Shown here piece by piece: positions 21,137 through 28,199 of a stretch of DNA of 40,772 nucleotides. The stretch covers positions 1 through 40,772 of the IMG/VR virus record IMGVR_UViG_3300028456_000002, one strand, 5' to 3'. The notes under the pieces are model-generated. The model saw only the letters and a program-made list of their open reading frames with translations. It ran no database searches and was not told the origin of the DNA. Every line of letters starts with the position of its first letter. Position 1 is the stretch's first letter. Source of the DNA: a virus (lineage: Duplodnaviria > Heunggongvirae > Uroviricota > Caudoviricetes). A program made the translations under genes and the position numbers.

Positions 21137-21520
21137 TCAGCGTTTCAACTGAAAGTGAGGCCCGTCTTTCAGTGTTTTCCAGTCCCCGCCCCATTCGATG
21201 GCAGTCCCCAGCTCTGCGGCAGCCTGTTTAAATGCCTGCGCGATTTTCTCGTACAGAGGCCAGTCCCATGACACCTGGCTGCCAATGTAGGCCACAACAT
21301 CCACCGCATCACCGGTCAGGTGGCGGCTGTTCATGGTCTGGCTTTTCCCTTCCGCGACCAGCTGTTTCTGGCGATACTTACTGCGCAGGCCTTCCGTAAT
21401 ACCGAAATCAACCTCCGTCAGCTCCAGCGCACGGCGAACGACAGCAACCAGCTGTGGTTTGACGCCCTCCAAATTTTTTTCACTGCGACGGCTGAATCTG
21501 AATTTACCCGGCATATTCAC
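21137..21520 (-). CDS. Endolysin, peptidase M15 (D-Ala-D-Ala carboxypeptidase-like)
   Basis: 127 aa with ...SRHLTGDAVDVV... zinc-peptidase motif. Confidence 0.8.
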   Translation of the reverse strand: MNMPGKFRFSRRSEKNLEGVKPQLVAVVRRALELTEVDFGITEGLRSKYRQKQLVAEGKSQTMNSRHLTGDAVDVVAYIGSQVSWDWPLYEKIAQAFKQAAAELGTAIEWGGDWKTLKDGPHFQLKR

Positions 21521-21792
21521 CTCAACAATGGAAAGATTTTTATGACGTTCCCGCGTGCGCGTATCACCAGCACGCAGAACAGCAGATTAAAAAACACTTC
21601 CAGCCAGCCCGTTGCTAACGGGCGACCACACAGATAGCTGAGTGGAGCAAAGCCATAAAGCAGCATCAGCAGCCAGGCCAGCCATGACATCAGCGGTTTG
21701 TGTCTGGAGTCACGGCGACGATAAAAAAAGAGCGTCAGCACGATAACCGTGCATAACGCCACATTCAGCAATCCGGGAAAGTTACTTAACAT
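21517..21792 (-). CDS. Small membrane protein in lysis cassette (second holin or antiholin candidate)
   Basis: Start taken at MLSNFPGLLNVALCTVIVLTLFFY...; three hydrophobic segments; between holin candidate and endolysin. Confidence 0.45.
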   Translation of the reverse strand: MLSNFPGLLNVALCTVIVLTLFFYRRRDSRHKPLMSWLAWLLMLLYGFAPLSYLCGRPLATGWLEVFFNLLFCVLVIRARGNVIKIFPLLR

Positions 21793-22174
21793 TGCCGCCT
21801 CCTCCGCCACGCAGACGGGAGAACAGGCCGGACACCAGTGATGCAATATCCTGCTGGTGGATGAATGACAGAATCTTCACCGACACCACTGACACCAGTA
21901 CTGCACACAATGCGTCAACAGGTGCACCGTCAAACCCTGTATGCTTTACCAGCCAGGATGCCAGAACCTCTGCGCCCAGCACGCCGATAATGAACGACAC
22001 CAGAAAATGCGCCGCCACACGCCAGGCTGAAAGCGCCTGCGGCATCGTTGCCACAAATAACGCCCCGGCGAACGCACCAAACACAATCCCGAAATCCGTT
22101 CCGGTAAACAGCCCGAATACCGTCGCCCCGCCGAGCGCCGCAGCCGTGCCGGAACCGGATAAGGGTTCAGACAT
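21782..22174 (-). CDS. Putative holin
   Basis: 130 aa with three hydrophobic helices, Gly-rich C-terminus; first gene of the lysis cassette with AGGAGA ribosome-binding site. Confidence 0.5.
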   Translation of the reverse strand: MSEPLSGSGTAAALGGATVFGLFTGTDFGIVFGAFAGALFVATMPQALSAWRVAAHFLVSFIIGVLGAEVLASWLVKHTGFDGAPVDALCAVLVSVVSVKILSFIHQQDIASLVSGLFSRLRGGGGGNVK

Positions 22175-22191
22175 ACTTTTTTCTCCTGTAA

Positions 22192-22215
22192 ATAAAAAAG
22201 GGCCACCAGCGGCCC
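22192..22215 (-). terminator. Rho-independent terminator immediately upstream of the holin gene
   Basis: Minus strand GGGCC-GCTGGT-GGCCC followed by TTTTTTATTT. Confidence 0.6.
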
Positions 22216-22348
22216 GTAATAAAACACCCCGTCAAAGGCACCCGCCGATGTCTTTTATGTGATGTATTCAGATTCAATACACGTTGAGTAAAGCGCAGAT
22301 ATGAAAAAGGCCCGCCGCAGCGAACAATAAAGAAACGAAATTCTGAAT

Positions 22349-22372
22349 AAAAAAAACCGCCAGATACGGCGG
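22349..22372 (-). terminator. Rho-independent terminator downstream of the tRNA pair
   Basis: Minus strand CCGCC-GTATCT-GGCGG followed by T8. Confidence 0.65.
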
Positions 22373-22734
22373 TTGGTCAATGCAAGAGATACATTCTTAA
22401 TTGTAATAAAACCGAGGTGTCGGGTGCCTCCCGAAGTATTCCGTCCTGTATGAATACTGTGGTTTCCCGCTAAACCGACTCTTTTAACCACCCTCGCCCT
22501 GAGGAGCGCCCCGATGGTGTTATTTACAACACCAGAATGATACATCACCGACCCTGCCAGGAAATACAAAATCTCCACCAGCAATGCACCATTCTGCTGC
22601 CGTAAAAAAATCAGCACTGAAGCTAACCTGGCCTCAAATCATAGCCAGAGAACAGAATGCTTTTTCAAAACAACCTGCTCCCACGTAATAAAAATACGCC
22701 AGTGCTGCAATACAATAAGGCTTATTTCAAATGC

Positions 22735-22809
<75 letters not shown>

Positions 22810-22812
22810 ATA

Positions 22813-22888
<76 letters not shown>

Positions 22889-22940: not shown

Positions 22941-22968
22941 CCGAAAAAGAATATTAATGAGGACAGAC
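22941..22968 (-). promoter_or_regulatory. Candidate sigma70 promoter for the tRNA pair
   Basis: Minus strand TTGAAA, 16-17 nt spacer, TAATAT, about 45 nt upstream of the tRNA-Thr 5' end, AT-rich upstream region. Confidence 0.4.
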
Positions 22969-23057
22969 ACTTTTTCAATTAAAAACCGTGTCAATATTCG
23001 TAAATATATGTATAGATTTCCATTATTTATGAAATTCAGAAATAATGACACGCACAT

Positions 23058-23984: not shown

Positions 23985-24255
23985 TTTAAAGTATGGCGGG
24001 TCTGTGACTATCAGATCGACAGAGTTTTCCGGTAAGGTCTGGATAAATTCCAGGCAATCAGCGTTGATTAACTCAACGACTGGATATTTTTACAGTATTA
24101 ATCATAGATCAATAAGCACTTCTCTGATAGGCTCATTCCGCTTTTGCGCAAAGCAGATGGGCCTGAGGTTTGCTTGTGACCCCAACGCATGAGCAGATGG
24201 CTGGCAGGTGCCGCTAACACCCACCAGCCGCCCATTACCACAAATAAAAAAGCCT

Positions 24256-24456
24256 TCACTGCGGAAGGCGTCTGTAACAACCGAACTGATAATCTGCCAG
24301 ACCCGCCATAACAAGCTGGGTCAGTATTAACTGGCAGCGTTCGCGTGAAAGGTAAGTATTCTGTGCAATCTCCCCGACGGTCGCCGGTTCGGTGACGCTT
24401 AACTCATTAAACACCACTCTGGCGGTTTCGGTCATATCCTGCTGTTTTAGCATGTC
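24256..24456 (-). CDS. Small hypothetical protein, first ORF after the late terminator
   Basis: Start taken at MLKQQDMTETARVVFNELSV... preceded by AAGGA; about 66 aa. Confidence 0.4.
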   Translation of the reverse strand, partial: DMLKQQDMTETARVVFNELSVTEPATVGEIAQNTYLSRERCQLILTQLVMAGLADYQFGCYRRLPQ

Positions 24457-24576
24457 TTTTTTCCTTTTCTGGTTAACGTGACATACCAATAACTCTTGTC
24501 CAAAAAGCCAGCAAGCTGAAAGACCGGCATTCGCAACCACCAGCGCATTTAACGTCCTGTACCGCTTTTCGGGCAC

Positions 24577-24600
24577 AAAAAAACCCGCTTGGCGGCGGGT
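24577..24600 (-). terminator. tR'-like terminator just downstream of Q
   Basis: Minus strand CCCGC-CGCCAA-GCGGG followed by T7. Confidence 0.6.
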
Positions 24601-24653
24601 TTTGCTTACTTTGCCATCGCGTACAAAATCGGCAAAATATCAGATTTGCATGA

Positions 24654-24682
24654 AATATATGCTTTTTAATCTACTTTTGCAA
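24654..24682 (-). promoter_or_regulatory. pR'-like late promoter overlapping the Q stop codon
   Basis: Minus strand TTGCAA, 17 nt spacer, TATATT; a short transcript would end at the terminator at 24577..24600, the lambda pR'-qut-tR' layout. Confidence 0.55.
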
Positions 24683-25361
24683 TACTTTGCTTTGAAAATG
24701 CCGCCTTTTGTTCCGAACGCGTTCTCATTACCAACAATAAAGCCTCACTATCCAGCTGATGGAAAATGTGTTTCATTGCAACCCAGTGACCAGTAAATGT
24801 TTTGGACCAGTTTTTAGTTGTCACTCCCGCCAGTAATGCCAGATCCTGGTATTCATAACCTTCCCCGCCAAAAAGTTCTGCTTTTACTGCCTGCGCCGCC
24901 AGCCAGATTAATTTTTTCAGGCGTTCCCGTGTTTTCTCTGCAATTTTCCTGTTGCCAGAATGAGCCTTAAACTCTTCCCATGCCCAGCGGGTTATGGTGA
25001 CCTGATACTCCCAGCAAATATTTCCGCTGTAACACCACAACAACCAGGTTTTATGAGGTTCTTCAAGAGACAGAACAGCCCGTCGCCATGAGGATGTCGA
25101 AAACTCAACCTGACTTACCAGAGGAATTGACGTCCCCTTCGCCAGCGATTGTTTCCCCGGGATTGGTGGATTATCCCGCGTGATAATTTTTCCAGTCGCT
25201 TCATCGCGGTACCGGATTTTTTTACGCCTGTAACGCCCTGTATCGAACATGGCATTCTCCTGCCAGGCTTCAAGCTGACCTTTTGTTGCCCCACTCAAAT
25301 CGGCGGTGGCGATAATGAGCTGCTCACGAACAAACTGTAAATACTGGTTATTCATGCGCAC
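24666..25361 (-). CDS. Late gene antiterminator Q-like protein
   Basis: 231 aa ORF directly upstream of the pR'/tR'-like elements and downstream of rusA; assignment is positional, family not verified. Confidence 0.6.
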   Translation of the reverse strand: MRMNNQYLQFVREQLIIATADLSGATKGQLEAWQENAMFDTGRYRRKKIRYRDEATGKIITRDNPPIPGKQSLAKGTSIPLVSQVEFSTSSWRRAVLSLEEPHKTWLLWCYSGNICWEYQVTITRWAWEEFKAHSGNRKIAEKTRERLKKLIWLAAQAVKAELFGGEGYEYQDLALLAGVTTKNWSKTFTGHWVAMKHIFHQLDSEALLLVMRTRSEQKAAFSKQSIAKVD

Positions 25362-27763: not shown

Positions 27764-27919
27764 TTACTCCTCAGATTCGTAAGCTGTGAAGACAGCGACC
27801 TCCGTCTGGCCGGTTCGGATTCGTACCTCGCAGAGGTCTTTCCTCGTTACCAGTGCCGTCACTATGACGGTTAAACAGATGACGATCAGGGCGATTAACA
27901 TCGCCTTTTGCTGCTTCAT
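27764..27919 (-). CDS. hok: Hok/Gef family type I toxin (HokD-like), inside an N-terminally extended mok frame 27764..27976
   Basis: MKQQKAMLIALIVICLTVIVTALVTRKDLCEVRIRTGQTEVAVFTAYESEE, 51 aa, single TM helix, near-identical to chromosomal Hok proteins; the 70-aa in-frame upstream extension corresponds to mok. Confidence 0.85.
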   Translation of the reverse strand: MKQQKAMLIALIVICLTVIVTALVTRKDLCEVRIRTGQTEVAVFTAYESEE

Positions 27920-28199
27920 AGCCTGCTTCTCCTTGCCTTTCGGCATGTAAGAGGCTAACCTACATGTGCAAAGCATGAAATTGGCCTCAGATTAATGTTA
28001 AGCGTCTTGCCGGACGCGTAATGTTAACTGGGGCTTTTCTCTATCTGCCGTTGGTGTTCATGCCTGAGACAGATAGCCTCAAGCACCCGCAGCAATTCTA
28101 CTTAACTATCCTTTTCCCGCAAATCGTTTTTATCCCCAGCGGCAAATCGAATACACCACCAGCGCCACTGCCATCGCGATTCCTACTGTTGTGAATGCC

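Follow-up and report, generated by a model that had tools for sequence, protein, structure and literature searches.

Between the tRNA genes and the lysis genes of a tailed phage (Caudoviricetes; IMG/VR record IMGVR_UViG_3300028456_000002) lies a gap of 560 bp in which a reading of the letters alone had found hairpins and no gene. The question raised by this locus is whether such a gap is a spacer, a site left empty by lost cargo, or the seat of a product that annotation overlooks. We addressed it in the full stretch of 40,772 nucleotides, here called the window, and in related loci (numbered with L). On balance, we consider it probable that the gap is a moron/cargo slot of a Q-dependent late operon, composed of a non-coding RNA unit, a vacant cargo site and the leader of the holin gene, with the roles proposed below.

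The gap and its genomic context

The minus strand of the window is the late region of a phiP27-like lambdoid prophage and forms a Q-dependent late operon (Table 1). The flanks named in the original prediction, tRNAs on one side and a holin on the other, were recovered as such; the tRNAs are tRNA-Thr and tRNA-Gly, and the holin belongs to the family Phage_holin_8 and is 97-100% identical to the holin of phiP27-type prophages. The pR'-like promoter and the tR'-like hairpin should together yield a short transcript, predicted to be of about 70 nt and of the 6S/StxS type. Lambda 6S RNA and StxS are short PR' transcripts ended at tR' (PMC7547250). They resemble the RNA unit described below in that all are terminator-ended late-operon RNAs that are read through with Q; however, 6S and StxS start at PR' just past Q, and their counterpart in the window is located 2 kb upstream of the gap.

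Several further features of this and related prophages were recorded along the way. The hairpin CCCGCCGCCAAGCGGG of the tR'-like site is found, in other relatives, ahead of a tRNA-Met promoter. Between tR' and the methylase, a 65-aa ORF (24452..24246, minus strand) without a Pfam match resembles a 65-aa hypothetical protein annotated in relatives, and an intrinsic terminator (stem 24269..24252 plus T-run) overlaps its last codons. A full-length sok antisense RNA at 27914..28088 on the minus strand (Rfam RF01794, 112 bits) implies a hok/sok-type toxin-antitoxin locus in the early region of the prophage. In related prophages, isrK and C4 antisense RNA, immunity RNAs of the P1/P7 type, are encoded a few kb upstream of the late region (L012:665-863 and L138:1-162; Rfam 71-79 bits).

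Table 1. Features of the late region on the minus strand of the window, in the order of transcription
Feature	Coordinates	Strand	Description
antiterminator Q	25361..24666	-	Pfam Phage_antiter_Q, 297 bits
pR'-like promoter	~24682..24654	-	TTGCAA-17-TATATT; overlaps end of Q gene
tR'-like hairpin	~24647..24575	-	CCCGCCGCCAAGCGGG + T7; ~45 nt past pR' -10 box
DNA methylase	ends 23058	-	between Q region and tRNAs
sigma-70-like promoter	22978..22951	-	TTGAAA-16-TAATAT, upstream of tRNA-Thr; scan, 9/12 matches
tRNA-Thr(UGU)	22888..22813	-	ARAGORN; Rfam tRNA (two tRNAs: 63.6 and 65.6 bits)
tRNA-Gly(UCC)	22809..22735	-	ARAGORN; Rfam tRNA (two tRNAs: 63.6 and 65.6 bits)
560-bp gap	22734..22175	-	between tRNA-Gly and first holin
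D0, three-armed domain	22707..22612	-	long-range closing helix CAGCACUG/CAGUGCUG, then U7 run
H1, long imperfect hairpin	22606..22523	-	84 nt, 33 pairs; fold, covariation
STnc100/PasD-like core	22513..22414	-	closing helix P1 round four hairpins, including invariant CGGGAGGCACCCG hairpin
A/U-rich single-stranded linker	22413..22375	-	conserved CUUGCAUUGACCAA adjoins T1; unpaired in consensus structure
T1, intrinsic terminator	22374..22347	-	stem 22374..22355 AACCGCC/GGCGGTT; T8 ending 22349
vacant cargo site	22346..22275	-	holds only T2 and ~20 nt of unique sequence
T2, weak terminator-like hairpin	22325..22304	-	6 bp including two G-U pairs, then C + U5
holin leader, module C	22274..22175	-	hairpin 22252..22237, T3, Shine-Dalgarno AGGAG 22187..22183
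T3, intrinsic terminator	22215..22192	-	stem 22215..22200 GGGCC/GGCCC, 5-6 bp; T6 to 22194
holin, first lysis gene	22174..21782	-	Pfam Phage_holin_8
second holin	21846..21517	-	Pfam Phage_holin_3_7
M15 endolysin	21520..21137	-	Pfam Peptidase_M15_4

A conserved RNA unit past the tRNAs

Several stem-loops had been noticed in the gap besides its terminators, and they exceed what chance would give: the 560 nt fold at -183.6 kcal/mol, compared to -157.5 ± 6.1 kcal/mol for shuffled sequences (z = -4.26). Judged by its sequence and that of its relatives, the segment 22707..22347 (minus strand) is a conserved non-coding RNA unit, in which D0, H1, the core, the linker and T1 follow one another. The suggestion that the gap may encode a structured RNA has thus held for this segment, with a conserved multi-domain structure that shows covariation and is related to STnc100 and PasD; calling the gap gene-free, on the other hand, remains correct for protein genes but overlooks this non-coding unit.

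The hairpin H1 folds at -40.1 kcal/mol on the minus strand (z = -7.1) versus -13.1 kcal/mol on the plus strand, and its frequent G-U pairs are compatible with the minus strand alone. Across 26 distinct relatives, 98.4% of the cells at its paired positions retain pairing, versus 32-55% in slid controls, and 7 of the 33 pairs have changed on both sides in a compensatory manner. The core comprises 35 pairs, 96.8% of which are kept in 19 sequences (RNAalifold and pair counts). In 53 distinct sequences recovered from IMG/VR the core is 97.2% paired, with compensatory changes at 17 of the 35 pairs; that alignment was fitted to the model and its agreement is somewhat inflated.

D0 reaches a minimum free energy of -39.1 kcal/mol (z = -3.96). 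Its closing helix is present in 18 of 18 relatives, with one compensatory change from U-A to C-G, and its three-arm layout is common to two poorly alignable sequence classes. For the interior of D0 no consensus fold was obtained across both classes, in which the closing helix alone aligned. Since this helix is almost invariant, the case for D0 is one of conservation more than of covariation. A search of 22596..22736 against Rfam, tRNA included, gave no match at E <= 10. We also considered D0 as a decayed tRNA and rejected this idea: ARAGORN calls only the two true tRNAs, the arm sizes do not fit, and the Rfam search was blank.

The linker immediately precedes the terminator, as does the published seed of PasD, and by this analogy we infer that it is a putative seed region. 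A search for targets of this putative seed within the window returned its own locus only, with fewer matches than chance would lead one to expect.

For comparisons between loci we used two models, R1, a model of the core-plus-T1 family of the window, and R2, a model of H1; their E-values are rough, as calibration was short. In nearly all copies, H1 immediately precedes the core (R2: ~100-144 bits sense versus 34-45 bits antisense). Some relatives possess D0, H1 and T1 with the core replaced by about 50 unstructured bases, such that T1 is kept even without an STnc100-like core.

A G+C-rich hairpin followed by a U-run on the transcribed strand, the hallmark of an intrinsic terminator, is seen in T1 and T3, while T2 is weaker. 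T1 combines a 7-bp G+C-rich stem, a 6-nt loop and U8 (-11.7 kcal/mol). A 4-kb scan returned 14 terminator-like sites, against 5.2 ± 2.3 in shuffles. The two minus-strand terminators originally placed at 22349..22372 and 22192..22215 correspond, in scan and sequence alike, to T1 and T3. They are present in the slot, yet not all terminators there are orphans: the RNA unit has its 3' end at T1, according to the R1 model, whose match (22513..22343) finishes there, while T3 belongs to the holin cassette and T2 is an orphan.

Relation to STnc100 and PasD

At its gathering thresholds, Rfam places no family in the slot. The STnc100 model (RF02076) nevertheless aligns over its full length (model positions 1-206) to 22540..22345, with 19.1 bits and E = 0.036 on 311 nt, a score that does not reach the curated gathering cut-off of 47 bits. 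This alignment recovers the same helices, and the CGGGAGGCACCCG hairpin is identical in both. The STnc100 architecture, a closing helix round hairpins including CCGGGAGGCACCCGG, followed by a linker and a terminator, is found in the window as well, with helices obtained independently by RNAalifold from 19 relatives.

Reciprocal searches and intermediates connect the two families. R1 recognizes a genuine STnc100 at L084:493-661 (129.8 bits by Rfam) with 36 bits (E ~6e-8), and the copy in L125 is picked up by both models (R1, 105 bits; Rfam STnc100, 36 bits, E = 3e-4). When 16 related loci, most with a window-type copy, were searched with Rfam at the cut-off, STnc100 in L084 alone reached it. 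Moreover, the location is that of STnc100 and PasD, in a lambdoid late region, between Q or toxin genes and the lysis genes and co-oriented with them. On these comparisons, the 3' ~170 nt of the unit, that is the core plus T1 (22513..22347), is a divergent, unannotated subfamily of STnc100 and, via STnc100, of PasD.

The second step of this relation is less direct. BLAST searches with PasA, PasC, PasD1 and PasD2 (E2348/69, published coordinates) revealed no similarity in the window or in 91 loci. At the exact coordinates of PasD2 and PasD1 in EPEC E2348/69 (PMC8550237 Table S6), R1 scores 17.2 and 14.1 bits, but two chance-level matches of 15-16 bits occur elsewhere in the window. We have discounted these matches as evidence, since noise scores equally, and the link to PasD thus rests on the literature and on STnc100 as the intermediate. 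PasD and STnc100 are structural homologues, with PasD beside the holin-lysozyme operon (Zhu, Shabalina and Storz preprint, 10.64898/2026.05.13.724894). PasD-type RNAs are discrete, Hfq-dependent small RNAs (PMC8550237), while STnc100 is expressed in EHEC, with one copy 75 nt downstream of stx2 (PMC5331693, PMC12370729); the published transcript evidence concerns other STnc100/PasD members than that of the window (PMC8550237, PMC5331693).

STnc100, a small RNA that Salmonella and E. coli prophages encode in multiple copies, and PasD1/PasD2 (EcOnc13) share with the window the niche from Q to the lysis genes, the late-operon orientation, a length of ~170-200 nt, and the sequence of closing helix, hairpins (including CGGGAGGCACCCG), A/U-rich linker and terminator. 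The window subfamily differs from them in the addition of the 84-nt H1 and the three-armed D0 at the 5' side, and in its usually fixed distance past tRNA-Gly(UCC). In place of H1, PasD loci have a promoter-like TTGACT box, and R2 found no match at PasD loci, in phiP27, in L035 or in L085. A stretch in the window, TGTTGTAAA, resembles the region upstream of STnc100 and PasD and also belongs to the stem of H1.

Linkage to tRNA-Gly(UCC) and distribution

Of 89 distinct contexts, 63 have the core motif 286-307 nt past a tRNA, which in 60 of them is tRNA-Gly(UCC). The RNA unit starts ~20 nt past tRNA-Gly(UCC), a position that is fixed in most copies. A scan for a promoter of its own ahead of H1 or the core found none, and only weak 3-of-6 hexamers were visible by eye. 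Ahead of the first tRNA, a promoter-like site occurs at the same position in many relatives, and arrays that start with tRNA-Met have a promoter-like TTGCAA-17-TATTAT.

In two loci (L012:2143-2437 and L125:7289-7580), the D0-H1-core-T1 unit is located upstream of the tRNA array, as a second or solitary copy. The unit is thus a discrete module, more than a tRNA trailer.

H1 is present in 388 of 5426 complete E. coli genomes (~7%), with up to 5 copies per genome, and is almost always unannotated; only 36 genomes have a match that covers at least 80% of the whole gap. The core motif is found in more than 100 IMG/VR viral contigs.

A mosaic cargo slot and the holin leader

To map the slot, we compared 92 versions of the stretch that separates the last tRNA from this holin; their lengths range from 351 to 4042 bp (positions are given as q, 22735 minus the window coordinate). 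By BLAST against these relatives, the gap of the window is a mosaic of modules. Module A (q1-390/396), which ends exactly past T1, is subdivided by a boundary at q116-126; T2 is held by a module of 31 bp (q412-442); and module C (q461-560) accompanies this holin almost everywhere, whatever lies upstream. Between q~390-442 and q~461-490, relatives carry 0.2-3.5 kb of inserted cargo or have exchanged the flanking sequence.

The position had been described as the one where Stx-type phages carry toxin cargo, and a comparison with other lambdoid phages had been proposed to see what occupies it. In phiP27 (NC_003356), whose holin belongs to the same family (98% identical) and is preceded by the same leader with T3, the cargo indeed sits between the last tRNA and the holin and consists of Stx2e A and B (Pfam RIP, SLT_beta). 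There, the slot holds stx2eAB and no R1- or R2-type RNA unit, whereas that of the window holds the RNA unit and no protein cargo. Directly past the RNA unit of L084 (2536-4446) are genes for a SubB-like protein of 137 aa, a Peptidase_S8 SubA-like protein of 343 aa and a second SubB-like protein of 136 aa, a cluster that looks like subtilase-cytotoxin-type AB5 cargo with two B genes. TerB and DUF3927 form the cargo of many loci (Pfam TerB), two hypothetical proteins that of strain A19, and an IS66-type element is found in L015. A moron in the strict sense, a protein gene inserted between conserved phage genes, is absent from the window, whose gap has no conserved ORF.

In L003, L051 and L085, T2 borders the TerB/DUF3927 cassette on its left, and the window becomes homologous again from the last 11 nt of the DUF3927 gene onwards. 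The segment ~22346..22275 is therefore a vacant, and probably emptied, cargo site. The second of the two original proposals, an empty cargo insertion site, thus applies to this short segment, at which relatives carry their 0.2-3.5 kb.

Within the holin leader, T3 is placed 6 nt ahead of the ribosome-binding site; like the Shine-Dalgarno sequence, it hardly varies among more than 40 distinct sequences upstream of the holin. The leader also contains a weak conserved hairpin (22252..22237, minus strand), GGCAUC/GGUGCC in most relatives, with one mismatch in the window and a compensatory variant GGCAUC/GAUGCC among relatives; it is followed, just upstream of T3, by UUUGACGGGGUGUUUU.

Two arrangements in relatives deserve mention. 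In the 747-759-bp class (L004:3390-3685 and others), ~295 bp replaces q390-490 of the window, and an opposite-strand terminator, CACGAGTATTCCTGGATGCTCGTG + T7, abuts T1; the insert has no Rfam match and, by analogy with the pairs of Tree et al. 2014, may be a convergent antisense small RNA. In L001 (KU052038.1, phage SerU-LTIIb; 1122-4127), the segment of tRNA, RNA unit and first holin is tandemly duplicated, and the LT-IIb toxin genes are found downstream of the endolysin, outside the tRNA-holin slot.

Other explanations of the structured region

It is conceivable, though we think it rather unlikely, that the region acts in cis on the late/tRNA transcript instead of in trans as a small RNA. 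In that case, H1 would serve for RNase III-type processing or for stability, D0 would offer a handle for processing, and the two would divide the tRNA part from the lysis mRNA or determine its half-life. With its 33 pairs, H1 forms a near-perfect duplex, and a long duplex of this quality is the kind of substrate that RNase III cuts. It always lies between the tRNAs and the downstream genes, some relatives keep D0, H1 and T1 without the STnc100-like core, and the unit has no promoter of its own that we could find, all of which would suit such a role. However, 0.2-3.5 kb of cargo and up to three terminators can intervene between the RNA unit and the holin, so that the unit is not a fixed leader element of the lysis mRNA, and it ends in a canonical hairpin-plus-U8 module with a core related to discrete Hfq-dependent small RNAs (PMC8550237). 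The cis-acting and the small-RNA readings are compatible with each other.

We regard it as improbable that the gap is a non-functional spacer made of decayed moron remnants, whose terminators and hairpins persist only through the recent kinship of the prophages. The strongly mosaic build of the slot would fit this reading, as would T2 and the left edge of module C, which resemble the borders of a TerB/DUF3927 cassette that the window lacks; many relatives, too, are 90-97% identical, a relatedness that inflates conservation. Yet the structure is kept down to ~70% sequence identity, with the compensatory changes in core and H1 given above; changes on one side keep the pairing (G-C to G-U), which drops to 32-55% in the slid controls; and the unit stays intact, at a fixed distance from tRNA-Gly, in different flanking contexts.

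That the inverted repeats act at the level of DNA, whether as targets of recombination or insertion behind the mosaic boundaries or as a small mobile repeat, seems highly improbable to us: the module boundaries at q116-126, q390-396 and q442-461 do adjoin hairpins, and a genome may hold several copies of H1, but these copies are confined to the prophage slot, their orientation relative to the late operon is always the same, no associated recombinase was found, and the many G-U pairs make H1 strand-specific, which sites in double-stranded DNA do not need.

We give least credence to a small protein gene in the mechanical 120-aa ORF with a GTG start (22617..22255, minus strand), which is open in the window and its four closest relatives and which NCBI PGAP annotates, in a version of 132 aa, as a 'hypothetical protein' of ETEC strains (WP_064226585.1 in ETEC1749), but which is broken into pieces of 15-55 aa in most other relatives, with 1-nt indels inside it, lacks an evident ribosome-binding site and a Pfam match, runs through T1 and T2, and has substitutions that keep the RNA pairing instead. 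We rejected it as a gene for its lack of conservation, its frame shifts and the empty Pfam search, and on the same three grounds a 15-codon ORF inside H1; the earlier judgement that the gap has no credible ORF stands.

Discussion

As the explanation that we prefer, a cargo slot with an RNA unit of its own, suggests, the locus would behave differently in the lysogen and after induction. In the lysogen, the presumably Q-independent promoter upstream of tRNA-Thr would transcribe tRNA-Thr, tRNA-Gly and the RNA unit together, with a stop at T1. The tRNAs would be cut out and the trailer trimmed, probably in an A/U-rich stretch or in H1, leaving as predicted product a stable RNA of ~170-265 nt with a hairpin-plus-U8 end. 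By analogy with its STnc100/PasD relatives, this RNA would bind Hfq and pair with targets through the linker next to T1. T1, T2 and T3 would stop transcripts from Q-independent promoters, be it of the tRNAs or of a moron, and in this way keep the holin silent in the lysogen. After induction, Q-modified polymerase from pR' would read through all three. In lytic growth such a polymerase should ignore T1, and the 3' end would then need processing. No convincing sigma-70 promoter lies directly upstream of H1 or the core, and biogenesis by processing is a proposal on our part.

A more far-reaching version of this proposal, which we put forward only tentatively, is that the ~365-nt D0-H1-core-T1 stretch is a previously undescribed composite RNA. 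It would be made in lysogens as the 3' trailer of the phage tRNA-Thr/tRNA-Gly operon and set free, by tRNA processing and a double-strand-specific nuclease acting on H1, as an Hfq small RNA of the STnc100 type. An E. coli RNA of comparable origin is 3'ETS-leuZ, reportedly a small RNA of ~50 nt from the 3' trailer of a chromosomal tRNA operon. The likeness is that of an RNA directly past the last tRNA, ending at the intrinsic terminator of the operon and released by tRNA processing; the two differ in that they show no sequence relation and in that co-transcription with the tRNAs is, for the window, a presumption.

EHEC prophages are known to encode small RNAs at the moron site downstream of PR' (Tree et al. 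2014, PMC4104026). Like the unit of the window, AsxR, AgvB and their sense partners are small, terminator-ended RNA genes in the same cargo slot, beside toxin or moron genes (PMC4104026). However, these EHEC anti-sRNAs measure 51-60 nt, compared to 170-365 nt for the unit of the window, which also lacks a convergent partner, and the Rfam models of AsxR, AgvB and Esr41 found no match in the window or in the related loci scanned.

Prophage small RNAs at the toxin/moron slot, such as AsxR, AgvB, PasA-D and STnc100, rewire host regulation in pathogenic E. coli, and a slot that is empty in annotation can still carry such a putative regulator; the curated STnc100 model misses a whole subfamily. The stacked terminators offer a simple explanation for silent lysis genes downstream of Q-independent promoters, and the mapped boundaries of the modules pinpoint the sites of exchange of the Stx2e, SubAB-like and TerB cassettes. 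The linkage to tRNA-Gly(UCC) and the conserved 84-nt H1 suggest a processing route. If the composite trailer is true, it would provide a tRNA-operon biogenesis route for the STnc100 family, and small-RNA output would be tied to the expression of phage tRNAs rather than to a dedicated promoter.
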